Shown here one piece after another: positions 2,968-52,635 of a stretch of DNA of 64,000 bases (position 1 is the stretch's first letter; the number at the start of each line of letters is the position of its first letter). The translations under genes were made by a program, and so were the position numbers. Below the pieces are notes generated by a model, which worked only from the letters and a program-made list of their open reading frames with translations, made no database searches and had not been told where the DNA came from. Origin of the DNA: Actinobacteria bacterium UBA2184 (GTDB lineage Bacteria; Actinomycetota; Coriobacteriia; Anaerosomatales; Anaerosomataceae); the NCBI GenBank assembly GCA_002328745.1, contig DCVQ01000027.1, positions 3,753 through 67,752 on the forward strand. The letters are read 5' to 3'.

Positions 2968-2997
2968 GGTGAGACCGGCCTCAGGGCCGGTCTCACC
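2968..2997 (+). terminator. perfect 13-bp hairpin GGTGAGACCGGCC-tcag-GGCCGGTCTCACC followed by TCGTTTCGGG
   Basis: Read directly. It lies 109 nt after the 2859 stop, has a partial T-tract, and abuts the SD of the next gene. Confidence 0.45.
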
Positions 2998-3022
2998 TCG
3001 TTTCGGGAGGGAGCGTGCAGCG

Positions 3023-17316: not shown

Positions 17317-18232
17317 TCCTTCCTGCGCAGCAGCGCCCTCCGTCGGCTGGCGTGCGTGCCTCCAGCGCGCGCGTGCTGCCGCGCTGCACCCGCTTGCCCC
17401 GTTGGCGGTGGTCGCTCCGCTGATCGTGATCTTCTGGATGACCGAATCCTTCGTGCATGTGGTGTTGTTCGACGCGGACTTCTGGGGCCAGGTCTTCCAT
17501 CCGGCGCCGCACGAGTTGTGGATGCGCGGACTGATGACTCTGGTGATGTTGCTGCTTGCGCTTGCGGGAAGTGCTCTCTCGCGGGAGCGCGCGCGGCGCA
17601 TCGAGCAGCTGGAATCGTACCAGCAGCGCCTCCGCGAGCTGACCGCACGTCTGGCGTACGCTGACGGCGACGAGCGTAGGGACCTCGCGAGCAGGCTCCA
17701 CGAAGGGGTGAGCCAGCAGCTTGCGGCGGCCCGCGTCTACCTCGGGAGCGTCGAGGCGACCGATGGCGAAGGACGCGAGGCGCTCGACCGGGCGGGCACG
17801 ATCCTGGAGTCCTCCCTCGCCGAGTGTCGCGAACTGGCCGGTGAGATCGCGCCTCCCGGTCTCGAGCACTACGGTCTGGGGGCCGCCCTCGAAGCGCTTT
17901 CGGCGCGGGTGAGACGCCGGACCGGAGCACGGGTGGAGATCACGGGAGCGGAGTCCGCGTTCCCGCTTGCGGCGGACGTTCAGCGGGTGGCGTTCCAGGT
18001 GATCGCCGAGATCATCGAATCCGCTGTGGCCGACCGGACCGTCCGGGCGCTCGCGCTCGAGTTCCGGCGCGAAGACGGCGCTCTCGCGGTGGGATTCCAC
18101 TGGGACGCACGAGGGCTCACGGACTACTTCTCGGTGCAGGAGCGCATCGGTGCGGTCGGCGGTCGTCTGTGCCTGGAGCCGTCGGGCCCGGACTCGCGCC
18201 TCACGCTGAGGGTGCCGCTCCCGGCCGCCTGA
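17288..18232 (+). CDS. HisKA_3-type sensor kinase homologue with degenerate ATP-binding domain
   Basis: Two N-terminal TM helices. H-box DERRDLASRLHEGVSQQL. The C-terminal domain lacks the N-box Asn and the DxGxG/GxG motifs (reads EIIESAV, FHWDARGL, FSVQERIGAVGG). The start is uncertain; GTG 17288 overlaps the RR gene by 29 nt. Confidence 0.6.
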   Translation: MKASRPLKTDPSCAAAPSVGWRACLQRARAAALHPLAPLAVVAPLIVIFWMTESFVHVVLFDADFWGQVFHPAPHELWMRGLMTLVMLLLALAGSALSRERARRIEQLESYQQRLRELTARLAYADGDERRDLASRLHEGVSQQLAAARVYLGSVEATDGEGREALDRAGTILESSLAECRELAGEIAPPGLEHYGLGAALEALSARVRRRTGARVEITGAESAFPLAADVQRVAFQVIAEIIESAVADRTVRALALEFRREDGALAVGFHWDARGLTDYFSVQERIGAVGGRLCLEPSGPDSRLTLRVPLPAA

Positions 18233-18380
18233 GTCCCGGGCGCGCCTTTCCTTACCACCTCTCGGGGATTCCCTGACGGGGTCGGGGCGTTTTCCGATGC
18301 ACCGCGCCCGGCCGGGCGCCGACCATCGTAGCGGGGAGACTCACTGCCGGCGTGCCGGCACCGCACACGATTGGACCCGG

Positions 18381-20357
18381 ATGTCCGACCGCACAGCCAA
18401 GACGAATGCCTCGCAGCCCGGCGTGTTGCTCGATGCTGCGGCCGAGGCGCTGATCCTTCTCGATACCGGCGACGTCTCGAGCGTGGCCGAGCTCATCGAG
18501 CGCGTGGGCGCGGTCGCGTGTGCGTTCGGCGATACCCTTCCATCCGATCATCCTGCCGAACGCGCACGTGCCGCAGCCGCCGCCCTCGCCGACGGAGACC
18601 TGTCCGCGCTGGCGCCGCTCGAGGCGGCGCTGATCGCGATCAAGGGCGAGATCGACCGGGCGGCTTCCGGCAAGGGCCGGCCCCGCGCCACGAAGCCCCC
18701 TCCGGCGGCCCCGGCCGAACAGGGTGCATCCGCGGCCGATGCCGCGACCGCGGCGACCGAAGCCGGGGCCATGCCGCTCGCCGGCGACGAGGAGCTGCTC
18801 CGTGACTTCGGCGTGCGTGCGGCGGAGCATCTCGACGATGCGGACGAGCGACTCCTCAGGCTCGACGCCGATCCGACCGACCGAGAGTCCATCGACGCGG
18901 TCTTCCGCGCGTTCCATACGATCAAGGGCATGGCCGGCTTCCTCGCGCTCGACGCAATCTCGCACGTTGCCCACGAGGCCGAGGGGATACTCGCCGCCGT
19001 CCGGGCAGAGGGGAACGGTCTCACCGAGCAGGCGGTGCGCGGCCTGCTCATCTCGGTGGACACCATGCGTATCCTCGTCGCCGAGACGAGCGGCGTGGGT
19101 CATACGCGGCCCGACGACGCCCCGGCGACCGGCACGGTCCCCGGCGGCGGGAGCGCTTCCGGGGCGCCCGTCCGCTCGGCAACCGGGGGCACGGTGCGCG
19201 TTGGAGAGGAGCGGCTGGACGCGCTTCTCGACGCGATCGGGGAGCTCGTCATCGGTGAGTCGATGGTCTCGGCGTCGGTTCGCGGCGGTGCGAGCGTGGC
19301 CGAACTCGGGACGCGCCTCGACCAGCTCGACAAGATCACGCGCGAGCTGCAGCAGATGGCCACGTCGCTTCGGATGGTGCCGTTGCGGGCGGTGTTCCGG
19401 CGCATGGCGCGGCTGGTGCACGACGTGTCGGACAAGTCAGGCAAGCGCATCGAGCTGGTCACGACCGGCGAGGACACCGAGCTCGACAAGACCGTGGTCG
19501 ACCGCATCGAGGACCCGCTCGTCCACGCGCTGCGAAACGCCATCGACCACGGCGTCGAGACCGCCGAGGAGCGGCGCGCGGCGGGCAAGCCCGAGGTCGC
19601 CCGCATCGAGCTTCGCGCGTTCCACTCGGCGGGATCCATCCACATCGAAGTCGCCGACGACGGGCGCGGTCTCGACGCCGAGCGCATCCGCGAGCGCGCG
19701 GTGACCGCCGGCGCCATCTCCCCCGACGACGCCCTCGACGGCAGGTCGCTGCTCGACGTGCTGTGCATGCCGGGCTTCTCCACCGCCGAGGTGGTCACCG
19801 ACGTCTCCGGCCGCGGCGTGGGCATGGACGTGGTGCGCCGCACCGTCGAGGAACTGCGTGGCCGCCTCGAGGTGGCCAGCGCTCCGGGCCGGGGCACCAC
19901 GTTCAGCATCCGGCTGCCCGTGACCCTTGCGATCATCGACGGCATGGTGCTGCGCGTCGGCGTCGACCGGTTCATCGTCCCGCTGCTCGCCATCGAGCGC
20001 TCCATCCGGCCGACCGCCGCGCAGATCACCACGATCGCGGGTCGCGGCGAGATGGTCGCCGCCGAGGGCGAGCCGCTGCTCCCGCTGGTGCGCCTGCACC
20101 GGCTCTTCAGCATCCCCGACGCCGAAGAGGACCCGTCCTCGGCCGTTGTGGTGATCGTCAGCGATGGCGGCGTGCGCGCCGGGCTGCTCGCATGCGAGCT
20201 GCTCGGCCAGCAGCAGACCGTCATCAAACCGCTCGGCGACGGGCTTCCGGACATGCCCGGGATCGCCGGCGGTGCCGTCATGCCGGACGGACGCGTGGGG
20301 CTGATCCTCGACGCGGCCGGGATCGTGAGATCCGCCAACGATGGAGGAGGTGAGTGA
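18381..20357 (+). CDS. cheA: chemotaxis histidine kinase CheA
   Basis: Hpt motif FRAFHTIKGMAGF. Dimerisation and HATPase domains (HALRNAIDHG, DDGRGLD, GRGVGMDVV). C-terminal CheW-like domain. About 140 aa of N-terminal extension precede Hpt. The start at ATG 18381 is plausible but not proven. Confidence 0.88.
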   Translation: MSDRTAKTNASQPGVLLDAAAEALILLDTGDVSSVAELIERVGAVACAFGDTLPSDHPAERARAAAAALADGDLSALAPLEAALIAIKGEIDRAASGKGRPRATKPPPAAPAEQGASAADAATAATEAGAMPLAGDEELLRDFGVRAAEHLDDADERLLRLDADPTDRESIDAVFRAFHTIKGMAGFLALDAISHVAHEAEGILAAVRAEGNGLTEQAVRGLLISVDTMRILVAETSGVGHTRPDDAPATGTVPGGGSASGAPVRSATGGTVRVGEERLDALLDAIGELVIGESMVSASVRGGASVAELGTRLDQLDKITRELQQMATSLRMVPLRAVFRRMARLVHDVSDKSGKRIELVTTGEDTELDKTVVDRIEDPLVHALRNAIDHGVETAEERRAAGKPEVARIELRAFHSAGSIHIEVADDGRGLDAERIRERAVTAGAISPDDALDGRSLLDVLCMPGFSTAEVVTDVSGRGVGMDVVRRTVEELRGRLEVASAPGRGTTFSIRLPVTLAIIDGMVLRVGVDRFIVPLLAIERSIRPTAAQITTIAGRGEMVAAEGEPLLPLVRLHRLFSIPDAEEDPSSAVVVIVSDGGVRAGLLACELLGQQQTVIKPLGDGLPDMPGIAGGAVMPDGRVGLILDAAGIVRSANDGGGE

Positions 20358-20890
20358 GCGTGATCCAAACGGAGACGGAGACGGGAGCCCTGGCAGGCAA
20401 GTACCTGACCTTCGCGCTCGCCGATGAGCACTACGGCATCGAGATCCTGCGCGTGCAGGAGATCGTCGGGCTGCTCCCGATCACGCGCGTGCCGCGACTG
20501 CCCGATTTCGTGGCGGGTGTGGTGAATCTGAGAGGCAAGGTCATCCCCGTGGTCGACCTGCGGCAGGCCTTCGGGATGCCCCCGGTCGAGCTCAACGACC
20601 GGACGTGCATCGTCATCGTCCGCACGACGCGGTCTGACGGCCGCACTACCGTCATGGGCGCGCTCGTCGACGAGGTCTCGGAGGTCGCCGACCTGCCGTC
20701 GTCCGCGATCGAGGAGACACCCGAGTTCGGCGTCGGCGTCGATACGTCATTCGTGAAAGCCATCGGACGGCTGGAGGACCGTGTCGTGCTGCTGCTCGAT
20801 GTGGACCTCGTACTGTCCGGTCAGCAACTGGAGATCGTCGAGCGCGCCGCAGCGGCCGCCGAACGAGCGCGTACTGAAGGGGGTTCGTGA
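20354..20890 (+). CDS. cheW: chemotaxis coupling protein CheW
   Basis: 178 aa. [22 protein letters not shown]...[20 protein letters not shown] overlap with the cheA stop, with GGAGGAGG upstream. Confidence 0.9.
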
Positions 20891-22545
20891 TGATCAAGAA
20901 CTGGAGTCTTGGGCTCAAACTGGCAGGCGGGTTCGGCATCGTTGCGCTGCTGCTCGTCATCGTCGGCGGCGCCGCGATGCTCGACATGCGCACGATGAGC
21001 GGCCTCGCGGCCGAGATCACCGAGGATGTCGACATCGCCGACAACATCATGGAGGCGAAGTTCGAGGTGGAGAAGCAGCGGCTGCTGCTGATGGAGGTCA
21101 TCCAGTCGTCGGACGCGGCCGAGATCGAGGCGCTCGCGAGCGATCTCGAGGATTCGAACAAGGTGTTCGACGAGCTGATCGATGCGGCCGTCGCGTCGCT
21201 CGAAGAGGATGCCAGGGGCGATGAGGTGGCCGCCGATGTGCTCCCGCAGGCGCGCGAGGCGGCAGCGGTGCATGACGACGAGCTCGAACCCGTGATCGCG
21301 GAAGCCGTCACGCTCGCGGCGAGCGCCACCACGGAGGAAGCGCGCGACGCTATCGGGGAGCAGCTCGCGGAGCTGGACGAGACGGCCGACGCAGCGGGCG
21401 AGCACATGGTCGGCCTGATGGAGGAAGTCGAGCTCGGCACGGACACGATGGTGGACAACGCGTCCGTCGCGCTCAAGGCGACCACGTCCCGCGCGCTTGC
21501 GCAGTCCATCATCCTGCTCGTGGCCGGCGTTCTTGTCGCCGCAGGTGCCGCGTGGTTCAACACCCGGGCCATCACCTTGCCGATCAACCGCATCATCGCG
21601 GGCCTCACCGCCGGCGCCGAGCAGGTCTCGAGCGCGAGCAATCAGGTGGCCTCCGCAAGCCAGCAGCTGGCCGAAGGCGCGAGCGAGCAGGCCGCCAACC
21701 TCGAGGAGACGTCCTCTTCGCTCGAGGAGATGTCGGGCATGACGCGTCAGAACGCCGACAACTCCCGTCAGGCGGACGCCATCAGCCGCGAGGCGCAGGG
21801 CGCCGCGCAGCGCGGCGTGGACGCGATGAGCCAGATGTCCGCCGCCATCAAGGGCATCAAGGACAGCTCGGACGCCACCGCACGCGTCATCAAGACGATC
21901 GACGAGATCGCCTTCCAGACCAACCTCCTGGCCCTGAATGCGGCCGTTGAGGCCGCTCGCGCCGGAGACGCCGGCAAGGGCTTCGCCGTCGTGGCCGAAG
22001 AGGTCCGCTCGCTCGCGCAGCGCTCGGCAGAGGCCGCCAAGAACACCGCGGTGCTCATCGAAGGCTCGCAGGCAAGCGCCGAGCAGGGCGTCAACGTGAC
22101 CGCCGAGGTCCAGAAGACGCTCGAGCAGATCGTCTCCACCGTCGACCGGGTCACGATGCTCGTGGGCGAGATCGCTGCCGCGAGCCAGGAGCAGGCCCAG
22201 GGCATCGACCAGGTGAACATCGCGGTCGCGCAGATGGACCGGGTGACGCAGGCCAACGCTGCCAACGCCGAGGAGTCCGCCTCCGCGAGCGAGGAACTCT
22301 CGGCCCAGGCTCGCGAGCTCGGCGAGATGGTGACGCTGCTCATCAAGACGGTCCGGGGCGCCAACGCCGCGGTCGGCACGGGGTCCGCGCGGGTTGCCGC
22401 CAGCCCCTCGGCCGGCACGCTCAACCGTGTTCACGCAGCGAGCGCCGGTGCACGCGTGCATGCGGCGGCTGTGGCGCGCAACGCCCGGGCGGTCGACCCC
22501 GAAGAGGTCATCCCGCTCGACGATGAGGACCTGGCCGACTTCTAG
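20887..22545 (+). CDS. methyl-accepting chemotaxis protein (4-helix-bundle sensor)
   Basis: Two TM segments. Hallmark hairpin [43 protein letters not shown]-terminus ...[11 protein letters not shown]. The start overlaps the cheW stop. Confidence 0.9.
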
Positions 22546-22566
22546 GCCGGTGGAAGCGACGAGACA

Positions 22567-23382
22567 GTGCCTGCGATGATGGACATACGGAAGAAGACGT
22601 TCGACCGCCTGGTCGAGATCGTGTACGAGACGAGCGGCATCTCGCTCGGCCCGCGCAAGCAGGCGCTCGTGTGCGCGCGCGTGAGCAAGCGCATGCGGGT
22701 GCTCGGCATCGGCTGCTTCGACGAGTACCTCGCGTATCTCGAGGAACATCGTGGCGAAGTCGTGGGCCTGCTCGACGCGATCTCGACCAACGTGACGAGC
22801 TTCTTCCGCGAGCCGCACCACTTCGACTTCATCGCCGAAGCTGCGGGGCTGTGGTACGAGTCGGGTCAGCGGCGCTTCAGATTCTGGAGCGCCGCGAGCT
22901 CGACCGGCGAGGAGCCGTACTCGCTCGCGATGGTGGTGAAGGAGGCGCTGCCGTTCCCGGATGTGGACCTGCGCATCCTGGCGACCGACATCTCCACCGA
23001 GGCCCTGGCCGTCTGCGAGGACGCCGCCTACGATCTCGGCAGGATGGAACCGGTGCCTGCCGCGCTTCGGGACCGCTGGTTCTCGCCGGTACGCGGCACC
23101 GCGCAGTCGCTGTGGCAGGCGAAGCCCGCGCTGCGCGACGCCGTCGTCTTCCGGCGCATGAACCTCTCGACGCCGCCGTTCCCGATGACGGGGCCGCTCG
23201 ACGCCATCTTCTGTCGCAACGTGATGATCTACTTCGACGACGTGGTGCGGCGCCGCCTCCTCGAGGAGTGCAACCGGCTGCTCAAGCCCGGTGGGTTCCT
23301 CGTCGTGGGACACGCGGAATCGCTTGCGGGCATGATCGCCGACTTCAAGTACGTTCGGCCTTCGATCTATCGCAAGGCATGA
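22567..23382 (+). CDS. cheR: chemotaxis protein methyltransferase CheR
   Basis: 271 aa. TNVTSFFREPHHF, FWSAASSTGEEPYSLAM, IFCRNVMIYF. Confidence 0.9.
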   Translation: MPAMMDIRKKTFDRLVEIVYETSGISLGPRKQALVCARVSKRMRVLGIGCFDEYLAYLEEHRGEVVGLLDAISTNVTSFFREPHHFDFIAEAAGLWYESGQRRFRFWSAASSTGEEPYSLAMVVKEALPFPDVDLRILATDISTEALAVCEDAAYDLGRMEPVPAALRDRWFSPVRGTAQSLWQAKPALRDAVVFRRMNLSTPPFPMTGPLDAIFCRNVMIYFDDVVRRRLLEECNRLLKPGGFLVVGHAESLAGMIADFKYVRPSIYRKA

Positions 23383-23383
23383 A

Positions 23384-23878
23384 GTGGACGTCGTCGTCGG
23401 CATCTCGGAGTACGCGGTGTCGTCCGATCCGGACGACACGCTCATCACGTACTCCCTGGGCAGCTGTGTCGGTCTCGTGCTGCACGATCCCGTGGCGGGC
23501 ATCGGCGGGCTGCTGCACGCGATGATGCCCGTCTCGACCGCCGATCCCGGGAAGGCCGCGATGACGCCGGCGATGTACGTCGACACCGGTGCCGCCCGCA
23601 TGCTGCAGGAGATGTTCGACCGGGGCGCGACGCGGCCGAACCTGTCCGCGTGGGTCGTCGGGGCGGCGAACCAGCTCGATTCCGACAACCTGTTCCGTAT
23701 CGGCGCGCGCAACCACGCCATCGTGCGCAAGGTGCTCTGGAAGAACGGGATCCTCATCGCTGACGAGGAGACCGGTGGGTCGATATCGCGAACGGTCACC
23801 CTCGAGGTGGGGGACGGTCGCGCGTTCGTGAAGTCAAGCGGAGGCGTCCGCGAGCTGCGGCCGCCGAGGACGAGATAG
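23384..23878 (+). CDS. cheD: chemoreceptor glutamine deamidase CheD
   Basis: 164 aa. TYSLGSCVGLVLHD (catalytic Cys), GGLLHAMMP, NIGARN-like FRIGARN. GTG lies 1 nt after the cheR stop. Confidence 0.85.
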   Translation: MDVVVGISEYAVSSDPDDTLITYSLGSCVGLVLHDPVAGIGGLLHAMMPVSTADPGKAAMTPAMYVDTGAARMLQEMFDRGATRPNLSAWVVGAANQLDSDNLFRIGARNHAIVRKVLWKNGILIADEETGGSISRTVTLEVGDGRAFVKSSGGVRELRPPRTR

Positions 23879-23886
23879 GAACGGCG

Positions 23887-25787
<1,901 letters not shown>

Positions 25788-25854: not shown

Positions 25855-27687
25855 ATGGGCCTGAGCGACAAGAAACGCCTCGAGCATCTCGAGTCCATCG
25901 TCAATGCGCTCGACGGCGTCGTCTGGGAGTTCGACTGGTCGACGGGGGCGTTCACCTGGGTGAGCGCAGGGGCGGAGCGTCTGCTCGGCTATCCGCTCGC
26001 CGACTGGCTGGTACCCGGCTTCTGGACCGGGCATCTCCATGATGAGGACCGCGACTTCGCGGTCTCGTACTGCATCGCGGCCACGGAAGACGGGCTCGAT
26101 CACGAATTCGAGTACCGCATGTTCCACGCGGATGGCACCATACGGTGGCTGCGGGATGTGGTGTCGGTAGACCCCGTGCTGCGCATGGACGGCCCGCTAC
26201 GCGGAGTGCTCGTCGACATCACGGCTCAGAAGACCGCCGAGGAGTCGGCGCGGCAGTCGCAAGAGGTCTACCAAACGCTCGTGGAGCTCTCCCCGTACGC
26301 GATCTTCGTGATCGACGCGGGCGAGCGCTTCGTGTACGCAAACGACGCGGCGGCAGAGATGCTGTCCGCGCCCGCGCCCGAGGCGCTCCGGGGTATGCGC
26401 ATCTCGGCGCTCTTCCCCCGCGATGACGAAGGGGCTGCGGCGCTCGAAGAGGCGCGTACCGCCGCTGCGGCGCTGCTTCGGCACACCCCGGGCGACGCGA
26501 CTTCCCGCTCGAAGACGACGCGTGCGCCGATCCTCACGCTCGCCGGCCGCCGGATCGAGATGCAGCGCACGGCGGCCACCATCACCTTCGCAGGCGAGCC
26601 GGCGCTGCTCGTGATCGCACGCGACATCACTCGCGAGCTCGAGGCGGAGCGCGCGCTTCGCGAACAGCACGACTTCCTCGGTCACCTTCTGACGATGCTC
26701 GATTCTGGCGTCGTGGTGCTCTCCGGCGAACCACCGCTCGTCGTGCAGATCAACGAGCCTGCCGAGCGGCTGCTCGGCTGGGAGCCGGGCGAGCTCGTCG
26801 GCGAGAGCGCGCGGGTCCTGTTCAGCGGCGATGACGACTGGCGCGACTTCAACGAAAGGCTCCGACACGATGACCTGCCCGTGGGCGGCATCGCGGCTGA
26901 GACGCCGATGGCGCGCCAGGACGGCTCGTGTTTCGATGCCGAGATCGCGGTGCGCCCGCTCGGGATCAGGCCGGGAGAGTACATCGCCATCTTCCGTGAC
27001 GTGACCGAGAGGCTCGCGATGGAGCGGGAGGAGCGCGAGCACCAGAAGCGCCTGAGCGCGCTCATGGCCGAGGTGACCGATGCCGAGGACCGGCAGAGAC
27101 GTCAGCTGGCCGAGGAGCTGCACGATAGGGTAAGTCAACCGCTCGCCGTCTCGCGCCTGCACCTGGCGGGAGCCGTGAAGGACGACGGGTCCGCTGATCC
27201 GGCCGCCATCGAAGCGGCATCCGAGATGCTCGAAGAAGCGATCAGTCAGGCGCGCGCACTGACCACGGCTCTCTACCCGCCCGTTCTTCGCGAGCTGGGT
27301 CTTGGGCCTGCGCTGGGGTGGCTTGCCGAGGAGCTCGAGCGGACCTACCGGCTGCAGGTGGAGGTGGCCCTGCCCGAGAAGGAGCCACGGCTCGAGGAGG
27401 AGGCAGCGTCGGTCCTCTTCCGTACCGCGCGGGAGCTGCTTGTGAACGTGGCGAAGCACGCGGGCGCCACACAGGCGTGGATGAGCCTCGACGTGGTCGC
27501 CGGATCGGTGGTCCTCACGGTCGCTGACAACGGCCACGGGTTCGAGTCCGGCGCCGAGACGGGCTTCGGCCTGTTCAGCATCCGGGAACGCCTGCCGCAC
27601 CTCGGCGGCAGCGTCGAGATCGAGAGCGAGCTCGGTTCGGGCGCACGGATCACGGTGTCGGTGCCCGAGCAGGCTCGGGACGCCTGA
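25855..27687 (+). CDS. cytoplasmic triple-PAS sensor histidine kinase (HisKA_3 + HATPase_c)
   Basis: 610 aa with no TM segment. Three PAS-like blocks. H-box LAEELHDRVSQPL. Intact ATPase domain (ELLVNVAKHA, ADNGHGF, GFGLFSIRERL). AGGAG SD. Confidence 0.88.
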   Translation: MGLSDKKRLEHLESIVNALDGVVWEFDWSTGAFTWVSAGAERLLGYPLADWLVPGFWTGHLHDEDRDFAVSYCIAATEDGLDHEFEYRMFHADGTIRWLRDVVSVDPVLRMDGPLRGVLVDITAQKTAEESARQSQEVYQTLVELSPYAIFVIDAGERFVYANDAAAEMLSAPAPEALRGMRISALFPRDDEGAAALEEARTAAAALLRHTPGDATSRSKTTRAPILTLAGRRIEMQRTAATITFAGEPALLVIARDITRELEAERALREQHDFLGHLLTMLDSGVVVLSGEPPLVVQINEPAERLLGWEPGELVGESARVLFSGDDDWRDFNERLRHDDLPVGGIAAETPMARQDGSCFDAEIAVRPLGIRPGEYIAIFRDVTERLAMEREEREHQKRLSALMAEVTDAEDRQRRQLAEELHDRVSQPLAVSRLHLAGAVKDDGSADPAAIEAASEMLEEAISQARALTTALYPPVLRELGLGPALGWLAEELERTYRLQVEVALPEKEPRLEEEAASVLFRTARELLVNVAKHAGATQAWMSLDVVAGSVVLTVADNGHGFESGAETGFGLFSIRERLPHLGGSVEIESELGSGARITVSVPEQARDA

Positions 27688-27703: not shown

Positions 27704-28006
27704 TCAGTGCCGGATGCGGAAGCCCTGCAGCCCTCCCGGCGCCTCCCACCGCACCTCGACGCTCTCCACGACCGCGTGAGGCGGACCCTCGTGGCACCAG
27801 GCGATGGCGGATTCGACCGCCGCCGCCGGGCCCTCGAACACGGCCTCGACGCCCTGCGCGGTGTTGCGGACCCAACCGGCCAGACCCCGCGAGCTTGCTT
27901 CTCGCGAAGCGCTCGCGCGGAAGTAGACACCCTGCACGCGACCGCCGATATGCACGCGGGCGCGCACTGTCTCGCTGCCCGAAGGACCGCGCTCCGTCTG
28001 TGGCAC
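27704..28006 (-). CDS. acyP: acylphosphatase
   Basis: 100 aa. VHIGGRVQGVYFRASASREASSRGLAGWVRNTAQGVEAVFEG is the acylphosphatase signature. GTG start with GGGAG SD. Confidence 0.85.
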   Translation of the reverse strand: MPQTERGPSGSETVRARVHIGGRVQGVYFRASASREASSRGLAGWVRNTAQGVEAVFEGPAAAVESAIAWCHEGPPHAVVESVEVRWEAPGGLQGFRIRH

Positions 28007-28071
28007 GATGGCTCCCGCGTCCGAATTGGATATCTACTTCCATGTCTACCCGTCAGCGAAGGAGCGCCGCC

Positions 28072-29538
28072 ATGCAGATCACACCGGACACCAGGATCCA
28101 CGACCTTCTGCAGGAGTACCCGTCGATCAAAGCATGGCTGATCGCGTACGCTCCCGCATTCGAGAAGCTCGGCAACCCGGTGGTGTACAACACGGTGGGG
28201 CGCGTGGCCACGCTTGAAGCCGCCGCGAAGATGGGCGACGTCGACGTCGCCGTCTTGATCGACGCGGTCCGCGAGCGGGTGGCTATGGCATCGATCGCCG
28301 CCGAGGAGACCGCGGGCGCGGCCCCGCGACTCGACGACGACGAGCGGGCCCGCCGCCAGCAGGTCCTGAAGGGCCTCATCCGGGAGCTGCACGCGGGCGC
28401 CAGCATCGAGTCGGTCAAGGCGCGCTTCGACGAGCTCGTGCGCGATATCGATGCGGCCGAGGTGGCGATGATGGAGCAAGCGCTGATCGCGGAGGGCATG
28501 CCTGTGAGCGAGGTGCAGCGCCTGTGCGACGTGCACGTCACCGTCTTCAAGGAGTCGCTTGACGCGGGTGAGGCTGCGCCGGTCGCCGCATCGCATCCGA
28601 TCGACGCCTACCTGCGCGAGAACGAGGTCGCCTCGGCCGTCGCCGGTGAGCTGCGGGCGGAGCTGGCCGCACTCGCCGCCGAGCCTGGCGCGCTCGCGCG
28701 TATCGCCGATGGGCTCGTGCGCCTCTCGGAGATCGCGGTCCACTACCGTCGTAAGGAGATGCAGCTGTTCCCGCTGCTCGAGCATCACGGCATCGAAGGG
28801 CCGACCAAGGTGATGTGGGCGCTCGACGACGACATCCTGGCGATGATCGGCCGCGACCGCGAGGCCGCGGAGTCGGGGGACGCGGCTGCCGTCGTGGAGT
28901 CGCTGCCCGCAACGCTCACCGCCGTGGACGACATGGTGTACAAGGAAGAGAAGATCCTCTTTCCGGCCGCCCTGCAAGCGCTCACGGAGGCCGAGTGGGA
29001 GGGGATCGCGGCGGGAGACGGGGAGATCGGCTACGCCTGGATCTCCGGCCCCGAGCGTGGGGAGGCGACGGTCGCGGGAGCGCGCGCGGTGGCGGCCGCG
29101 GCGGCGGGTGACGCGTCGGCGCTGCCGGCGGGTGACGCTCCGATCGTCCTTACCACGGGCGCTCTCACAAGAGAACAGGTCGATCTGATGCTCGGCGTGC
29201 TTCCCTTCGACTTGAGCTACGTGGATGAGAACGACCGGGTGCGGTTCTACTCGGAGGGGGAGCGCATCTTCCCGCGGTCGCCGGCGGTGATCGGGCGCGA
29301 GGTCCGCAACTGCCACCCGCCGGCGAGCGTGCATAAGGTGGAGGAGATCCTCGCCGCGTTCAAGGCAGGCGAGAAGGATACCGCCGATTTCTGGATCCAG
29401 ATGCGTGGTGCGTTCCTGCACATCCGCTACTTCGCGATGCGGGATGCCGACGGCACGTACCGCGGGTGCCTCGAGGTGGTGCAGGACGTCACGCGTATCC
29501 GCGCGCTCGAGGGCGAGCGCCGCATCGTCGATTGGTAG
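28072..29538 (+). CDS. DUF438 protein (DUF1858 + hemerythrin-like + PAS)
   Basis: 488 aa from ATG 28072 (AAGGAG SD). N-terminal ITPDTRIHDLLQEYP (DUF1858/ScdA_N-like). Hemerythrin-like His/Glu-rich helices. C-terminal FYSEGERIFPRSP...RNCHPP...YRGCLEVVQDVT PAS. Confidence 0.8.
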   Translation: MQITPDTRIHDLLQEYPSIKAWLIAYAPAFEKLGNPVVYNTVGRVATLEAAAKMGDVDVAVLIDAVRERVAMASIAAEETAGAAPRLDDDERARRQQVLKGLIRELHAGASIESVKARFDELVRDIDAAEVAMMEQALIAEGMPVSEVQRLCDVHVTVFKESLDAGEAAPVAASHPIDAYLRENEVASAVAGELRAELAALAAEPGALARIADGLVRLSEIAVHYRRKEMQLFPLLEHHGIEGPTKVMWALDDDILAMIGRDREAAESGDAAAVVESLPATLTAVDDMVYKEEKILFPAALQALTEAEWEGIAAGDGEIGYAWISGPERGEATVAGARAVAAAAAGDASALPAGDAPIVLTTGALTREQVDLMLGVLPFDLSYVDENDRVRFYSEGERIFPRSPAVIGREVRNCHPPASVHKVEEILAAFKAGEKDTADFWIQMRGAFLHIRYFAMRDADGTYRGCLEVVQDVTRIRALEGERRIVDW

Positions 29539-43155: not shown

Positions 43156-43740
43156 ATGAGCGTCATGGTCGGGCACGAGGCCCCGGACTTCGAGGCCCCC
43201 GGGCTCCAGAACGGCAAGTTCGGCAAGTTCAAGCTGTCGGACTACAAGGGCAAGTGGGTCGTCATCTGCTTCTACCCGGGCGACTTCACCTTCGTTTGAC
43301 CGACCGAGCTCTCGGCGGTCGCCAGGAGGTACCCGGAGCTTCAGGGTCTCGGTGTCGAGGTCCTGTCCTTCAGCGTCGACAGCGTTCACTCCCATAAGGT
43401 GTGGCAGGAGACCGAGCTCTCCAAGATGGTGGACGGCGGCGTGCCGTTCCCGATGCTCTCCGATGCGGGCGGGAAGATCGGCGAGCTCTACGGCGTGTAC
43501 AACGGCGCCGTGGACGTGCGCGGGCGCTTCCTCATCGACCCGAGCGGCGTCATCCAGGCCATGGAGGTGCTCACGCCTCCGGTCGGCCGCAACCCCGATG
43601 AGCTGATCCGCCAGATCAAGGCGTACCAGCACCAGCAGGCAACCGGCGAGGTCATGCCATCCGGCTGGCAGCCGGGCGATCCGACGCTCAAGCCCACCGA
43701 CGATCTCACCGGGCACGTGTGGGAGGTCTGGAAACCGTAG
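43156..43740 (+). CDS. peroxiredoxin (AhpC/Prx1-type) with in-frame TGA at the peroxidatic-Cys codon, read here as selenocysteine
   Basis: ATG 43156 with [21 protein letters not shown](43297-43299)-PTELS. Both halves are in the same frame and conserved (track ORFs 42952..43299 and 43399..43740). 194 codons. Confidence 0.7.
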
Positions 43741-48214: not shown

Positions 48215-49126
48215 TCAGCTGCCTGAGAGCTGCTTCAGCGTGGTCGAAACCACGTGGATGAAGTCCGAGAAGAACTTCTCGAAGGAGCCGATCTCGTCGT
48301 TCGTGCCGTCGGACACGAACTCCGCGCTGAAGTCGCCACCGGCGACCCGCATGGAGATGTCCTGCATGCTCTCGGTCATCCGGCGAAGGCGCCGTAGTAC
48401 GAGCAGGTCCATCATCATGCCGATGATCAGCGTCGAGACCAGCAGTGTGACACCCACCACGGCGAGCGTCGACAGCATCGACCTGTTCGCTCCGTCGGCC
48501 TGGGCCGACACGTCCTCGATGACGTACACAACGCCCAGGGCCTCATCGTCGGCGCCGTACACGGGGAAGACCGCATGCCCCTTGCTCGATGAGTCGGTGC
48601 TCCACTTGATGGTCCAGAAGTCACCCTCGCCGGTCATGCCCTCGTGACAGGTCTTCGTGCACGAACCGATCTCCACACCGATGGCCTGGCTGTTCTCCGA
48701 GACCTCGGTAGCGGGGCGCTCGAACTGCATCTTGTCCGCGGCCGCATCATCTGTCGCGAAGAGGAGGGCGTAGTTCTCGCGCTCTGCCCACGCCGAGCTC
48801 TCGCCGAGCTCCTCGCGCGCTGCCGCGTACGTGCCCTCGTCGGCAACGGCCTTGTCGAGCAGGAAGCCGTACTCGTCGCCGGTGACAGCCTTCATGCCCT
48901 CAAGGATGCGCTGCACTTCCCCGGGGTTCCCGACCGGATCGACCGCTACGCCCTCACCCTTGATCTGCTCCCATGCCGCGAGGCTTTCGACTCCGGCCTC
49001 CGCAGCCGTGGAGTCGATGCTCTTGGAGTACGACTGGTGAAGGTACACCACCACGGCTATCGCGCCCAGAAGATTCACGATAACCACCGTCGCCAGGATG
49101 CGCGTTCTCACTGACATGTTCTTCAT
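48215..49126 (-). CDS. membrane protein: extracytoplasmic CxxCH (haem c) sensor-like domain + TM + HAMP, no output domain
   Basis: 303 aa from ATG 49126 (alternatives 49180 and 49117). TM1, about 190 aa outside with the single motif CTKTCH (48644-48661), TM2, then a HAMP domain (RRLRRMTESMQDISMRVAGGDFSAEF...DEIGSFEKFF). Ends in a double stop. Confidence 0.75.
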   Translation of the reverse strand: MKNMSVRTRILATVVIVNLLGAIAVVVYLHQSYSKSIDSTAAEAGVESLAAWEQIKGEGVAVDPVGNPGEVQRILEGMKAVTGDEYGFLLDKAVADEGTYAAAREELGESSAWAERENYALLFATDDAAADKMQFERPATEVSENSQAIGVEIGSCTKTCHEGMTGEGDFWTIKWSTDSSSKGHAVFPVYGADDEALGVVYVIEDVSAQADGANRSMLSTLAVVGVTLLVSTLIIGMMMDLLVLRRLRRMTESMQDISMRVAGGDFSAEFVSDGTNDEIGSFEKFFSDFIHVVSTTLKQLSGS

Positions 49127-49196: not shown

Positions 49197-52184
49197 CTAC
49201 GGTGCCAATGTGTGACAACTCAGGCAGATGGATGGCTCGGGCACCGGGCTGCTGTCAGCGCTGCAGGCCGGAGACGTTGACGGCTGCTCGGTATCATCGG
49301 ATTGAGTCGCATCGCTCAGGACAGGTGCTGCTGTCCCTGAGATCTCCGTAGAAACCGCAGAACCGGCCTGCGTATCGGGGGGTGTGTTCGCTGCGATCGA
49401 TGCCGACAGGGTAGGCACGGGTCCTGCGGGGATCACGCACGAAGCCGACCGGCTCGCCGCAGTGCTGTGGCAGTTCGCGACGGATCCGTCGGTGCCGCCG
49501 CATGAGACGGTGAGATGTCCGCCAACGGTGTGACAGCCCGCCTCGGTGCATGCATGCGCGTCGACGGTCGTGGGCGTGTCCGGCGTCGGATCGGGGATGC
49601 TGCGGACATCGAGCGCGGAATAGCCTGGGGGCGGCGATGGGTTGTCATGACAACCGCAGGCACCCTCCTGGGGCAGTCCATCGTTGCCGATCTCAACGCC
49701 CGTGTGGACCGTGGCACTGTCGGGGTGGTAGGTGTCCGGAGGATCGGCCGTCGCCATGTGGCAACTGAGCGTCGGGTCGTTGCCGCCGCATCCGATGATC
49801 ATCGACGGTCCGCCGGCGACATGGCAGCCCGGCGTGCCGTAGCAGCCGCCCACGCCGCTATGGAGCGTCGACAGGCGCGTCGTGGTGTGGCAGCCGGCGG
49901 TGACACAGGTGCCGGGCGTCGGCACGTTGTCGGCGCTGTACTCCACGCCTATGTGGTGGTTCGGGTTCTTCGTGTGGTAGCTGATGCTGCGCAGGTGGCA
50001 GCTGAGTGCCGGGTCGGTGCCGCCGCATCCGATGATCATCGACGGTCCGCCGGCGACATGGCAGCCCGGCGTGCCGTAGCAGCCGCCCACGCCGCTATGG
50101 AGCGTCGACAGGCGCGTCGTGGTGTGGCAGCCGTCCTTCACGCAGGAGCCCGGCGTCGGCACGTTGGCCGTGCTGTACTCCACGCCTATGTGGTGGTTCG
50201 GGTTCTTCGTGTGGTAGCTGATGTTGCGCAGGTGACAGCTTAGGGCAGCGTTATCGGCGTTACCGCCGCAGCCCAGTACGCCGGTCGGCCCGCCCTCGAC
50301 GTGGCAGCCCGGGATCGCGCATCCGACCTCGTGGTGCGTTTCGTAGACGTTGACCGTGACATGACAGCCGTCTTTCACGCAGGAGCCCGGCGTCGGCACG
50401 TTGGCCGTGCTGTACTCCACGCCTACGTGCACGGTCGCGAAGTCGTCGTGCTTGTTGGCATCGCTCGCGGTGTGGCACGCCGGCGTCCCCGCGCCACCGC
50501 CGCACGTCATGTAGGTCGGACCTCCCGCAACGTGGCAGCCCGCCGTGTAGCAGACTCCGACCTCTTCGTGCAGATCGCGCACATCGGCGGTGGCGTGGCA
50601 TCCCGGTCTCACGCATCCGGTCTCAGATACCTGTCCGTCGTGGCCGATCTGCGTGGCTATGTGCGCCGCGTCAGCGGTCGCGTGGCGCGAACTCGCGGTG
50701 TGACACGAGGTGCCCGACTGGTCGTCGGTGCCGCCGCACGTCATCGTGCGCGATCCTCTGATGTCACCCGTGTTCGAGTGGCAGCCGCTGATGGTACAGC
50801 CGATCTCGGCGTGCAGGACGCGCACGTCCGCGGTCGTGTGGCAGCCCGGCTTCGCACAGCCCGTGGACGAGACGTGCCCCTCGTGGTCGATCTGAGTGGC
50901 CACGTGTGCACTGCCGATGGCACCGTGGATCGAGTCCCCGTGGCACGTCGCGCATGCCGCGGCGGTGTCGCTCGCTGGCCAGTCGCCCATGACTGCGGCG
51001 ACGGTCGTCTCGTTCTTGTTGTGGCAGCCGAGGCAGGTATCGCCAGCGATGACCGAGTTCCGCCGGGCGTGCTCGATCCCGATGTCCGTCGTGTGGCACG
51101 ATCCGCACGTCACGCTCACACCGCTCGTGCGATCGGTGTAGGTCGCCGATGCCTGCGAGCGGCTCTCCGGCGCATGCACGACATCGTCGTCGGTGTGGCT
51201 GTATTCGTCGTTGAGATAGTCCGGATGGCAGTTGCCCTCGCCGGTGCCGCACGCGGTGACGACCGGGGTCTTTGGCTCGGCCTCGAAGTCGTGGCATGCG
51301 GGCTCGCCCTCGGCCGCCGAACCCGAGCATGTGGCGGGCTTGTCCGGGTGGAGCGCGTGCAGGTCGTTGCCATCGTGGCATCCTGCGCCGGTCGTGCCGC
51401 AGCTTGCGGTGCCGCTTGCCTCGACCGAGCCGGAGATCACGTCGGAGGCGTGCATCGGCGCGCGCACCGTCTCTTGGTGGCAGTCCTCGCAGCGGTGGTC
51501 CTCCCAGTCGGAGAGGACCTGGTCGAGCGCCCCCGACTGCTCGTCGTTGTGGCACTCGACGCACCCGATCTCGGTGCCGTAGTCGCCTCCGTCGACCTCG
51601 TTCACCACGGAGTGCGCGGTCTTGAGATCGCGCGAGTGGCAATCGGCGCAGGTCGCCTTTGCTTCGCCGTCGGCCGCCGTCCTCACTACCTGTTCGAAGT
51701 CCGTGCCGAGGGCGGTGTGCAGCGATTCGCGGTAGTGTCCCTTGGGCCACGCGTCGGCGAGCGTCACGCAATCGGAGACGCCCTCCATACTGCCGTCGTG
51801 GCACCCGGTGCACTCGTGCTGATTCGGGGCGTGGCAGGGGATGCATCCGACGCCCGTGTAGTCGTGGCACACAGTGCACGCGGTGTCGGGATGGTACTTG
51901 TTGAAGTCGCTCAGGCCCTCATCGAACCCGTGGCAGCCGTCGCCCGAGTTCGTGCAGCCGCTCTCGCGACGCGCGCTGTAGTCGCTGGCGGAGGTGAAGG
52001 TGTGGACGGTCTCGGTGGGAGGGTTCCAGCCTGCGGCAAACGCAAGACCGCCGATCAGGACCACAGCGATCCCGATCTTGCCCTTGCGGGCCCTGATCCA
52101 CTGTGCGAGTCCCTCGCGAGCCGGCTGCGGCGTTCCGGCGCCGTAGGACGCCGTTCCGCCGCTGGGATGCTTCGTGCCCCTCAT
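49197..52184 (-). CDS. N-terminally anchored giant multihaem c-type cytochrome (10 CxxCH + 21 C-x(4-10)-CH motifs)
   Basis: 995 aa. TM anchor KIGIAVVLIGGLAFAAGW. Canonical motifs: CTVCH, CIPCH, CTGCH, CADCH, CVECH, CEDCH, CGSCH, CLGCH, CATCH, CLSCH. The C-terminal half consists of tandem modules. GGGGGG SD before ATG 52184. Confidence 0.85.
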   Translation of the reverse strand: MRGTKHPSGGTASYGAGTPQPAREGLAQWIRARKGKIGIAVVLIGGLAFAAGWNPPTETVHTFTSASDYSARRESGCTNSGDGCHGFDEGLSDFNKYHPDTACTVCHDYTGVGCIPCHAPNQHECTGCHDGSMEGVSDCVTLADAWPKGHYRESLHTALGTDFEQVVRTAADGEAKATCADCHSRDLKTAHSVVNEVDGGDYGTEIGCVECHNDEQSGALDQVLSDWEDHRCEDCHQETVRAPMHASDVISGSVEASGTASCGTTGAGCHDGNDLHALHPDKPATCSGSAAEGEPACHDFEAEPKTPVVTACGTGEGNCHPDYLNDEYSHTDDDVVHAPESRSQASATYTDRTSGVSVTCGSCHTTDIGIEHARRNSVIAGDTCLGCHNKNETTVAAVMGDWPASDTAAACATCHGDSIHGAIGSAHVATQIDHEGHVSSTGCAKPGCHTTADVRVLHAEIGCTISGCHSNTGDIRGSRTMTCGGTDDQSGTSCHTASSRHATADAAHIATQIGHDGQVSETGCVRPGCHATADVRDLHEEVGVCYTAGCHVAGGPTYMTCGGGAGTPACHTASDANKHDDFATVHVGVEYSTANVPTPGSCVKDGCHVTVNVYETHHEVGCAIPGCHVEGGPTGVLGCGGNADNAALSCHLRNISYHTKNPNHHIGVEYSTANVPTPGSCVKDGCHTTTRLSTLHSGVGGCYGTPGCHVAGGPSMIIGCGGTDPALSCHLRSISYHTKNPNHHIGVEYSADNVPTPGTCVTAGCHTTTRLSTLHSGVGGCYGTPGCHVAGGPSMIIGCGGNDPTLSCHMATADPPDTYHPDSATVHTGVEIGNDGLPQEGACGCHDNPSPPPGYSALDVRSIPDPTPDTPTTVDAHACTEAGCHTVGGHLTVSCGGTDGSVANCHSTAASRSASCVIPAGPVPTLSASIAANTPPDTQAGSAVSTEISGTAAPVLSDATQSDDTEQPSTSPACSADSSPVPEPSICLSCHTLAP
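49749..50222 (-). repeat. two tandem 237-nt (79-aa) coding repeat units inside the cytochrome gene
   Basis: 49782-49895 is identical to 50019-50132 (114 nt, compared by eye). The rest of the unit is near-identical. More diverged copies continue to about 50906. Confidence 0.85.
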
Positions 52185-52211
52185 GATGGCCCCCCGGAAG
52201 TTCGGCGACGC

Positions 52212-52415
52212 CTAGTCGAGTCTCAGTCCGAGTATGTCCTGGGCCGCCTGCTGCAGATTCCGAAGCTTCTCGGCGTCATCGGGATCTTCAGGCTTGATGA
52301 GCGTCACGATGAAACCTACGCGCATGGCGATGGCGCCGCGCGTCTTGAACACATCGAGGTTGTTGCGCTGAATGTGCTCCTCGATGCGTTGCGCGTAGTC
52401 GTAGAGCTTCCCCAT
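52212..52415 (-). CDS. 67-aa hypothetical protein, first gene of the cytochrome operon
   Basis: MGKLYDYAQRIEEHIQRNNLDVFKTRGAIAMRVGFIVTLIKPEDPDDAEKLRNLQQAAQDILGLRLD. GGAGGTGGGGA SD before ATG 52415. The stop lies 27 nt before the cytochrome start. Confidence 0.6.
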   Translation of the reverse strand: MGKLYDYAQRIEEHIQRNNLDVFKTRGAIAMRVGFIVTLIKPEDPDDAEKLRNLQQAAQDILGLRLD

Positions 52416-52635
52416 CGATCCCCACCTCCGCAGACCGGATGCATACATGTTCGGCATTCGGGCCCAAAATATTTAGCGAAACGCGCCAGCGCTGCATGCC
52501 GGAGCGCGTGCCTCCCCCGTACCCGCTAATAATCACCGAATCTCGGTCCCAGCGCTAGTGTGGGTGTTCACAAAGCCGAACCGTGGGGAGAAACGGCCCG
52601 GTGTGTGCGCGTGACCGCCGTGATACCGTGCTGCT

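Follow-up and report, generated by a model that had tools for sequence, protein, structure and literature searches.

The 64,000-nucleotide stretch of contig DCVQ01000027.1 from Actinobacteria bacterium UBA2184, which was analysed here and is referred to as the window, encodes a cytochrome of 995 residues with 32 potential haem-attachment motifs (positions 49197–52184, reverse strand). The cytochrome gene is part of a conserved cassette that includes genes for a 67-residue protein, p67, and for a 303-residue protein resembling haem-c sensors, p303. In the explanation considered the best, to which a probability of roughly 60% is assigned, the cytochrome would be an exported electron conduit of approximately 32 haems paired with p303 as a haem-c sensor of redox state or of a ligand. 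The confidence that the protein is a genuine multihaem cytochrome, as its sequence indicates, is higher than that in the full explanation. The haem occupancy of motifs with long spacings, the geometry of the conduit, the source and destination of its electrons, and the function of p303 as a sensor are inferred. An initial annotation of the DNA had proposed a very large multihaem cytochrome, and this reading is supported by the invariant Cys and His residues of the long-spaced motifs, the matching number of free His residues, the similarity of orthologues to cytochrome families from Pfam, and the System II maturation genes located beside paralogues. The initial annotation had missed the cassette, in which the cytochrome adjoins the conserved sensor-like p303.

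Motifs and domains of the cytochrome

The open reading frame (ORF) of the cytochrome is intact, begins with ATG, and encodes 995 residues followed by a stop codon. The guanine and cytosine (GC) content of its first, second, and third codon positions is 0.61, 0.58, and 0.84, which is typical of genes in the window with 68% GC, and therefore the ORF is a real gene. Other long ORFs overlapping with it, including one of 742 residues on the forward strand (50301–52529), failed by the GC content of their third codon positions and were rejected as antisense or out-of-frame artefacts of GC-rich DNA. The cytochrome contains ten CxxCH motifs, at residues 103, 114, 125, 179, 208, 232, 360, 384, 411, and 987, together with one CxCH motif (residue 843) and 21 Cx4–10CH motifs. 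The recount bears out the length of the ORF and the numbers of motifs of each type listed in the initial annotation; however, the total of about 31 given there is one short of their sum, which is 32. Besides the two residues of CxxCH, the spacings between the Cys residues of a motif are 1, 4, 5, 6, 8, 9, and 10 residues, and the non-canonical sites (Cx1, Cx4–6, and Cx8–10) make up 22 of the 32 motifs. The spacing of seven residues is found in homologues. Examples of the motif peptides are CTNSGDGCH, CSGSAAEGEPACH, CVKDGCH, and CGGTDPALSCH, and glycine-rich loops of the forms C-G-x-x-G-x-G-C-H and CGG...CH occur within long-spaced sites. Because 21 of the 32 motifs have a long spacing between Cys and CH, standard scans for CxxCH would count only ten of the 32 predicted sites.

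All 32 CH dipeptides of the cytochrome are preceded by a Cys located 1–10 residues upstream, and only three of its 67 Cys residues (139, 916, and 974) lie outside the motifs. The protein contains 71 His residues. Shuffling of the residues yields 4.7 ± 2.0 CH dipeptides, with a maximum of 13, and 0.31 CxxCH motifs, compared with the 32 and ten that were observed. When the 32 CH units were kept intact in 5,000 shuffles, 16.3 ± 2.7 of them, and at most 26, had a Cys 1–10 residues upstream. The pattern of Cys residues and CH dipeptides is far above chance. The density of approximately 26 residues per motif is the same as that of cytochromes c3 and c7.

Relatives of the cytochrome numbered 138 in a search of 5.8 billion proteins; most are 900–1,600 residues long, and they originate from metagenomes and metagenome-assembled genomes (MAGs) labelled as Coriobacteriia, Actinomycetota, or Actinobacteria. 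The names of the relatives are limited to 'hypothetical protein' and 'cytochrome c3 family protein'. An identical protein is present on metagenome contigs from ENA and JGI and in an NCBI record, the contigs being as long as 136,750 bp. A scan with the family alignment, using one genome per GTDB species, located 48 cytochrome loci, all of them in MAGs of the Coriobacteriia/Actinomycetota lineage. The title 'uncultured Eubacteriales bacterium' is attached to the loci L014, L017, L020, L022, L023, L025, L037, L038, L042, and L044, which are from 'binchicken' or co-assembly MAGs. These titles conflict with the Coriobacteriia or Actinomycetota labels of all other matches and are probably a taxonomic mislabel. 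Judged from the sequence matches, the cytochrome family is confined to uncultured Actinomycetota/Coriobacteriia.

The arrangement of Cys residues is shared by the family. The 60 best homologues contain about twice as many Cys residues as CH dipeptides, and all of their CH dipeptides except three (one each in P0030, P0033, and P0047) have a Cys 1–12 residues upstream. Conservation was evaluated in alignments of 21 sequences (A1) and of 121 sequences (A2), the latter containing 120 homologues. In both of them, long-spaced and canonical motifs do not differ in the invariance of their Cys and His residues.

The first 33 residues of the cytochrome are variable and basic. They are followed by a hydrophobic helix, the putative export signal, formed by residues 34–53 (52026–52085, reverse strand), which was placed at residues 35–53 by the maximum of Kyte–Doolittle hydropathy and at residues 34–52 in a model calculated using AlphaFold2 (AF2). 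The conserved helix positioned after basic residues predicts the export of the protein to the extracytoplasmic side. The end of the helix (52020–52050, reverse strand, residues ~46–56) carries the sequence LAFAAGWNPP, which is near-invariant in orthologues and includes an AxA-type signal-peptidase I site. The N-terminal segment is predicted to serve as a signal anchor or as a signal peptide that is cleaved off, and the cytochrome may be released rather than membrane-anchored, because the AxA-type site is located at the helix end. The initial annotation had described the protein as membrane-anchored; the hydrophobic helix is real, but the putative cleavage site at its end leaves the anchoring not established.

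The conserved core of the family comprises residues 55–419 (50928–52022, reverse strand) and contains 13 motifs: nine CxxCH, Cx6CH at residues 77–85, 262–270, and 312–320, and Cx10CH at residues 286–298. Exactly 13 free His residues of the core are at least 90% conserved in both alignments, and four of the 13 motifs are long-spaced. One conserved free His per motif is what bis-His ligation requires. Among 21 close homologues of the cytochrome, eight match the Pfam family PF14522 (Cytochrome_C7; best E = 3.5e-8) and five match PF09699 (Paired_CXXCH_1). These matches map to stretches equivalent to residues ~179–236 and ~384–415 of the cytochrome from the window, and in P0009, P0011, and P0017, which are ~50% identical to it, they exceed the Pfam gathering score over the stretch equivalent to residues 179–236. 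Since orthologues that are ~50% identical over more than 80% of the length match PF14522 or PF09699, membership of the protein in the multihaem cytochromes c is probable by orthology. As judged from the sequence, the N-terminal core is homologous to recognised multihaem cytochromes.

Six tandem modules of approximately 80 residues were identified in the alignment of residues 420–912 (49449–50927, reverse strand). Their limits, 420–505, 506–583, 584–662, 663–742, 743–824, and 825–912, were drawn by eye and confirmed using MAFFT; comparison of the cytochrome to itself by BLAST returned the identity match alone. The modules are 78–88 residues long and contain, in order, a Cx4CH motif (CxCH in the sixth module), a Cx4–5CH motif, and a CGG-x6–8-CH motif, which corresponds to Cx8–10CH. 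Each module has six Cys residues and 3–6 free His residues for its three motifs; thus, a distal ligand is available for every predicted haem in the modules, as it is in the core with its 13 free His residues for 13 motifs. The alignment of the modules has 14 invariant columns. Modules four and five are 79% identical, which indicates that their duplication is recent. The number of modules varies among orthologues, which contain 22–44 motifs.

When the profile of the module was searched exhaustively with HMMER against 1.84 billion representative proteins, only 27 clusters were retrieved, about half of which were among the 138 relatives found previously. The 80-residue module appears, from its sequence distribution, to be an invention of a Coriobacteriia-type lineage. 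The profile has no match among the sequences from the PDB at E ≤ 10. The polymeric c7 'nanowire' cytochromes of Geobacter, such as the dodecahaem GSU1996, are also built of tandem modules of ~70–80 residues with three sites each and a similar order of His residues and CH dipeptides. However, the modules of the cytochrome use Cx4, Cx4–5, and Cx8–10 spacings instead of CxxCH, and there is no detectable relationship between the two. The assignment of the module to cytochrome c7 was rejected, since its profile aligned to the PpcA sequence with an hhalign probability of 0.4%. The idea of a c7 polymer survives only as an architectural analogy.

The C-terminal tail of the cytochrome, residues 913–995 (49200–49448, reverse strand), is predicted to be disordered. 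Pro, Thr, Ser, Ala, Glu, Asp, and Gly constitute 74% of its residues, and the predicted local distance difference test (pLDDT) score is below 50 over residues 902–995. The tail ends with the canonical motif ICLSCH, located nine residues from the C-terminus, and a terminal [IVL]CLxCH positioned 8–33 residues from the C-terminus is present in 16 of 21 orthologues. The tail also contains two Cys residues outside motifs: C916, which is invariant, and C974, which is conserved ~13–25 residues before the terminal motif. The CLxCH motif of the tail could bind a haem that serves as a tethered contact or has His/Cys ligation, or it could link subunits.

The AF2 model of the cytochrome, which was calculated from 121 sequences, has a mean pLDDT of 69, with values of 80–94 in the core and 75–90 over modules three to five. 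The model contains almost no regular secondary structure, and the combination with high pLDDT is as expected for folds packed around haems.

Predicted haem attachment at long-spaced sites

From the sequences, we infer that haem is attached at the Cx5–10CH sites of the cytochrome. In each of the 22 non-canonical units, the residue directly after the second Cys is a His, which homologues conserve without exception. The spacing of Cx6CH is kept in 118 of 120 homologues at residues 77–85 and in 119 of them at residues 262–270, whereas that of Cx10CH at residues 286–298 is kept in 114, and the rest have 9, 3, or 2 residues. The site at residues 312–320, which is Cx6CH in the cytochrome from the window, has 5–8 residues among homologues. 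Within the modules, one and the same position is occupied by CxCH, Cx3CH, or Cx4CH, or by Cx8, Cx9, or Cx10 spacings, in different copies and orthologues, and spacings of four and five residues also alternate at an equivalent position, while the Cys residue and the CH dipeptide are fixed. The long-spaced sites are favoured as haem sites because the His of the CH dipeptide is invariant and the number of free His residues fits all the motifs. They are also favoured because the length of the loop toggles (1/3/4, 4/5, 8/9/10, and rarely 2 residues) between a fixed Cys and a fixed CH, and because haem c sites with CX3, CX4, CX11, CX15, and CX17 spacings have already been documented (PMC11492766).

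The sites of the cytochrome share the two Cys residues, the His, and the odd loop with the non-standard haem c sites, which include CX3CH and CX4CH of cytochromes c3, CX11CH, CX15CH of MccA, and CX17CH. A contracted CXCH is found in an anammox cytochrome. To our knowledge, the known non-standard spacings occur as one special site per protein. By contrast, 22 of the 32 sites of the cytochrome are non-standard, they are systematically repeated, and several of their spacings are undescribed.

It is unlikely that only the ten CxxCH motifs, and perhaps the CxCH and Cx4CH motifs, bind haem, and that the Cx5–10CH motifs are former haem sites with a role in the structure, in binding of Zn, Fe, or Cu, or in disulfide formation, which would result in a protein with about 10–20 haems. 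Attachment of haem at the CX15CH motif of MccA from Wolinella needs a dedicated System II lyase, CcsA1, and no dedicated lyase for such spacings was identified in this analysis. The modules match no cytochrome model or structure, and the Foldseek search provided no multihaem fold. Furthermore, spacings of 5–10 residues are without a documented precedent: spacings 5, 6, 8, 9, and 10 are absent from the motifs described in PMC11492766, and no mention of CX5CH to CX10CH was found in the literature searched. However, the invariant His of the CH dipeptide in all 22 units is a signature of the proximal haem ligand, unlike in Zn or disulfide sites. The free His residues fit all the motifs, 13 for 13 in the core with its four long-spaced ones, and equivalent positions toggle between spacings, including the spacing of two residues. 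Without haem, the modules, at ~26 residues per motif, would be nearly devoid of a hydrophobic core. The attachment of haem at the long-spaced sites by a single thioether through the Cys of CH, with the upstream Cys serving in a disulfide, as a persulfide, or as an axial ligand, has a counterpart in the XXXCH attachment of euglenozoan mitochondrial cytochromes c and would fit glycine-rich loops (C-G-x-x-G-x-G-C-H and CGG...CH) that serve other functions, but it is very improbable, since the upstream Cys matches the CH in invariance and is always 1–10 residues away, and an exported protein would not usually have an odd free thiol beside each haem.

The lineage also encodes paralogues of the cytochrome that exceed it in size. 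Giant paralogues in related MAGs (L035, 7988–17194; L044, 6650–16837; L039, 6401–16642; and also in L037, L043, L049, and L052) are 2,000–3,400 residues long and contain 52–92 Cx(n)CH motifs, ~30–40% of which are non-canonical. Several of them are immediately followed by genes encoding ResB, CcsA, a TPR protein, and an NHL-repeat protein. An orthologous cassette (L019) and a paralogue of 3,068 residues with 91 motifs, comprising 53 CxxCH and 38 other Cx(n)CH, occur together on OW818687.1, a complete chromosome of 2.5 Mb. Directly downstream of this paralogue are genes for ResB (PF05140, E = 4e-19) and CcsA (PF01578, E = 1.5e-35), and the WWD signature of CcsA is present beside paralogues in L043, L045, L046, L048, and L049. 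The initial annotation had pointed to ccsBA, resBC, or ccm genes that might be found outside the window, and ResB and CcsA were found in sister genomes, that is, at the level of the lineage. The objection that a maturation system is missing does not hold at this level, because System II is encoded in OW818687.1 and its WWD signature occurs in five other MAG loci.

The cassette, p303, and other features of the window

The genes of the cassette are arranged in the order p67, cytochrome, and p303, on the reverse strand, between the genes for RlmL and a DEAD-box helicase, and the same arrangement is found in orthologous loci that are only 48–50% identical. The first gene (52212–52415) encodes p67, which is conserved and predicted to be cytoplasmic. 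A strong Shine–Dalgarno sequence, GGAGGTGG, precedes its ATG, and the gap between p67 and the start of the cytochrome is 27 nucleotides. The gene for p303 (48215–49126) begins after a 70-nucleotide gap from the stop codon of the cytochrome. A promoter scan detected no sigma-70-like sites. Terminator-like sites occur at the level expected by chance, and none is located in the intergenic gaps of the cassette. The three genes fit one operon, because of the Shine–Dalgarno sequence of p67, the gaps of 27 and 70 nucleotides, and the gaps being free of terminator-like sites.

Searches using tblastn located p67 beside the cytochrome or p303 in ~32 MAG loci, with 50–79% identity, and p303 downstream of the cytochrome in ~30 MAG loci, with 38–64% identity. 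In some loci, a second cytochrome with nine haems is inserted, or the order is cytochrome, p67, and p303. The paralogous cytochromes of loci L035–L052 are not accompanied by p67 and p303. One locus (L053; GCA_001714665.1, MCHG01000001.1, 212709–232912) has the order RlmL, p67, DEAD-box helicase, RlmA, and 4HBT, without the cytochrome and p303, and represents a natural presence/absence polymorphism of the cytochrome–p303 unit. Therefore, the cytochrome and p303 behave as a unit, and p67 is associated with them more loosely, since L053 keeps p67 alone. The family of p67 includes only 72 clusters, all named 'hypothetical' and from Coriobacteriia/Actinomycetota, and p67 has no match in Pfam. An ORF of 400–430 residues with 11 CxxCH and one other motif recurs no farther than ~5–8 kb from the cassette in L012, L014, L017, L022, L023, L025, and L030. 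Some of these loci also contain an ORF of 640–1,080 residues with nine CxxCH motifs; both ORFs are absent from the locus in the window.

The p303 protein is predicted to consist of a transmembrane helix, an extracytoplasmic Cache/PAS-like domain, a second transmembrane helix, and a HAMP domain, with no output domain. Its family comprises 115 clusters, nearly all of them ~303 residues long and named 'HAMP domain-containing'; the 114 close ones are ~226–329 residues long, most of them 302–308, and an output domain is never present. The sequence C156-T-K-T-C160-H161 (48644–48661, reverse strand) is a CX3CH motif, easily mistaken for CxxCH, and a predicted site of covalent haem c attachment. Residues C156, C160, and H161 are invariant, and H184 is at least 90% conserved, among 44 sequences. 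In the AF2 model of p303, which has a pLDDT of 88.3, the first transmembrane helix is followed by the motif-containing α/β Cache/PAS-like domain, the second transmembrane helix, and a two-helix HAMP, and residues 158–161 form a short helix between strands of the Cache-like fold. In a Foldseek search, the sensor half of WalK ranked first (E = 2.9e-8), ahead of chemoreceptor, DctB, and other Cache sensors. The only Pfam match at E ≤ 0.1 is a weak one to HAMP (E = 0.0023, residues 243–280), which is below the gathering score, and comparison of the p303 profile with sequences from the PDB provided nothing significant.

The architecture of p303, with a transmembrane helix, a Cache fold containing a haem c motif, a second transmembrane helix, and a HAMP domain without output, is shared with sCache_haem (DUF3365/Tll0287) proteins and Cache_heme-HAMP (CHH) receptors. 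The uncoupled HAMP of CHH receptors, which is without an output domain, signals through a bound Ser/Thr kinase (bioRxiv 10.64898/2026.05.25.727664), and sCache_heme has been reported to be rare or absent in Actinomycetota (PMC12889525). Unlike CHH receptors, p303 has no match to DUF3365, its motif is CX3CH instead of the canonical CXXCH, its neighbour is a giant cytochrome and not a Ser/Thr kinase, and its host belongs to Actinomycetota. No PknB-like kinase is a neighbour of p303 in three orthologous loci, where the neighbours are p67, the cytochrome, and the DEAD-box helicase. Sequence and model suggest that p303 is a protein that works like a CHH receptor but differs from the members of that group in these features. 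A candidate partner of its output-less HAMP would be p67.

Further features were noticed in other parts of the window. A peroxiredoxin gene on the forward strand (43156–43740) was split by gene callers into pieces of 47 and 113 residues; however, it is one frame with a single TGA (43297–43299), which stands precisely where the active-site motif FYPGDFTFV[TGA]PTE has its peroxidatic Cys. The product is probably a selenocysteine peroxiredoxin of ~194 residues. A test for a selenocysteine insertion sequence found a hairpin directly after the TGA, the energy of which is indistinguishable from that of shuffled sequences (z = -0.66). No tRNA genes were found in the window, and neither tRNA-Sec nor sel genes were seen in it. 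A c-di-GMP-II-GAG riboswitch (RF03169; 2902–2989, forward strand) scored 55.1 bits, compared to the gathering threshold of 40, with E = 3.7e-8; the aptamer is located just upstream of, and overlaps with the start of, an ORF of 144 residues (2969–3403). A chemotaxis cluster (17288–24735, forward strand) encodes CheA-CheW (18297–20357) and a methyl-accepting chemotaxis protein (MCP) with a 4HB sensor (20887–22545). A protein of 547 residues (27895–29538, forward strand) with DUF1858, DUF438, hemerythrin, and PAS_10 domains adjoins a multi-PAS histidine kinase (25855–27687), and the two may be a sensor pair for O2, NO, or iron. Past the right end of the window, the source contig encodes K+ transport, a two-component system, an Fe–S protein, and a nucleotidase.

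Proposed function of the cytochrome and its implications

According to the preferred explanation, the cytochrome would be exported by means of its N-terminal hydrophobic segment and matured by System II (ResB/CcsA) encoded elsewhere in the genome. It would bind ~32 covalent, mostly bis-His haems: 13 in the core, 18 in the six trihaem-like modules, and one at the tip of the tail. Packed closely, the haems would line up as an unbroken chain of sufficient length to span the envelope of a Gram-positive cell. In comparison, GSU1996 from Geobacter, with 12 haems in four modules, is ~12 nm long. A membrane donor would supply the electrons, which would pass on to acceptors or partners outside the cell or may be stored. 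In extracellular electron transfer, the cytochrome may deliver electrons to insoluble or extracellular redox partners or receive electrons from them. The p303 protein, presumably co-transcribed with the cytochrome, would sense redox state or a small ligand on the outer side and pass the signal by way of its output-less HAMP to another protein, possibly p67.

In addition to the lack of precedent for the long spacings and the need of CX15CH for its own lyase, several observations weigh against this explanation. The cytochrome from the window matches no Pfam families even at E ≤ 10, and its comparison with NCBIfam provided no cytochrome family but only noise (XynC, E = 0.021; DksA, E = 1.3). The profile of the family has no significant match among sequences from the PDB, where the E-value of 0.24 for NrfB is not evidence, and the Foldseek search of the PDB with the full-length AF2 model resulted in no matches at E ≤ 10. 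Because neither the profile nor the model matches a solved cytochrome, the packed chain of haems is not confirmable by fold. No Ccm or Ccs genes were detected by Pfam among ~28 of the ~55 genes in the window or by precomputed Pfam annotation of the region from ~39.2 to 64 kb and ~8 kb beyond the right end. The six frames of the whole window contain no WWD motif, although small or ResB-like genes outside the part scanned by Pfam would escape this detection. The statement of the initial annotation that the window contains no Ccm or CcsBA gene holds to the extent of these scans. Neither a quinol dehydrogenase nor another cytochrome is encoded in the window or within ~8 kb beyond its right end, and the cassette is surrounded by housekeeping genes (RlmL and the DEAD-box helicase), not by a respiratory cluster. 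The link of p67 to the system is weakened, because p67 persists where the cytochrome and p303 are missing. Finally, quinones were not detected in the related Anaerosoma (PMC9686372).

Cultured members of the order Anaerosomatales (OPB41, Coriobacteriia) provide the closest physiological context. Parvivirga hydrogeniphila and Anaerosoma tenue have 17–18 multihaem cytochromes with predicted membrane or surface location, and some of the genes are clustered with those for cytochrome c biogenesis (PMC9686372). The organisms are Gram-positive and non-motile, with genomes of 1.8–2.1 Mb and ~67% GC, and an obligate Fe(III) reducer among them forms thin appendages on ferrihydrite (PMC9686372). The view in the initial annotation that such cytochromes are rare in organisms of this kind is outdated, given the numbers in these isolates and the paralogues with up to 92 motifs in related MAGs. 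The cytochrome of the window shares the Coriobacteriia setting with the proteins of the isolates, which were compared by description, since no isolate genome was among the homologue matches. The isolate proteins were likened to MtrA, OmcH, and OcwA (PMC9686372) and are described without long-spaced motifs, the 80-residue module, or the p67/p303 cassette. Unlike the non-motile isolates, the window encodes CheA and an MCP.

With OcwA-type cytochromes of Thermincola and Carboxydothermus and with MtrC/OmcA (PF22113), the cytochrome from the window shares the proposed role of a conduit in the envelope or at the surface. Its membership in the MtrC/OmcA/MtrF (PF22113) or OcwA-type groups is not supported, since no match was obtained by Pfam, by the profile comparison to the PDB, or by Foldseek. 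The MtrC/MtrF domain PF22113 is matched by the distant family members P0044 and P0025, but not by the cytochrome from the window and its close orthologues.

It is possible, although not probable, that the protein is a genuine ~32-haem cytochrome that functions as an electron store, or capacitor, in the zone of the cell wall or as part of a reductase or oxidase of soluble sulfur, nitrogen, or metal substrates. The cassette encodes no porin, surface-anchoring motif, or terminal reductase domain and has no neighbouring respiratory genes, and a stoichiometry of the hexacoordinate type would suit storage and transfer equally. Moreover, Anaerosoma tenue, with its 18 multihaem cytochromes, does not reduce Fe(III) (PMC9686372). 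However, the cytochrome has no candidate catalytic site, as it contains no CxxCK and has a conserved free His per motif. The long modular chain with 22–44 motifs among orthologues, and the Pro/Thr-rich tail of a wall-spanning type, suggest a role in covering distance.

A signalling device, in which the cytochrome would be a redox antenna that poises the haem of p303, and the HAMP of p303 would act on p67 or another partner such as the chemotaxis system of the window, is improbable. It would explain the joint gain and loss of the cytochrome and p303, and it agrees with the sensor fold, the invariant haem c motif, and the output-less HAMP of p303, given that CHH receptors signal via bound partners and that CheA and an MCP are encoded at 18297–22545. 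By contrast, 32 haems are far above the need of any known sensor, the number of modules varies freely, paralogues without p303 are even larger, and no kinase or phosphatase is a neighbour of the cassette.

New in the system are the systematic and conserved use of Cx4–10CH, a trihaem-like module that seems restricted to its lineage, a C-terminal CxxCH on a tether, and a predicted haem-c Cache-HAMP partner outside DUF3365. All of them, including the spacings and the pairing with p303, are read from sequence. A more far-reaching joint reading is tentative and has less than an even chance of being correct. It proposes that the trihaem module is undescribed, that System II attaches haem to Cys pairs separated by loops of 4–10 residues, which would hide two-thirds of the haems from CxxCH surveys, that the copy number of modules sets the length of the wire, that a CX3CH Cache-HAMP monitor with a small partner evolved independently, and that the haem of the tail either swings as a terminal contact or links subunits.

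If the long-spaced sites bind no haem, the protein would be an ordinary deca-haem cytochrome with odd Cys/His spacers. If they do bind haem, the set of haem c motifs would gain spacings of 5–10 residues, used wholesale, and the substrate range of the System II (ResB/CcsA) lyase would become directly testable. Surveys based on CxxCH, or on CxxCH together with CX3–4CH, would underestimate haem content, with ten haems counted instead of 32 in the cytochrome and 53 instead of 91 in the paralogue, and would likewise rate too low the capacity of subsurface and hydrocarbon-associated Actinomycetota for electron transfer. The cytochrome would give a monoderm bacterium a compact, modular, and length-variable haem wire with a physical link to a haem-based sensor. 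Together, the wire and the sensor would provide leads on how electrons are moved, and their movement regulated, across the thick wall of Gram-positive cells.

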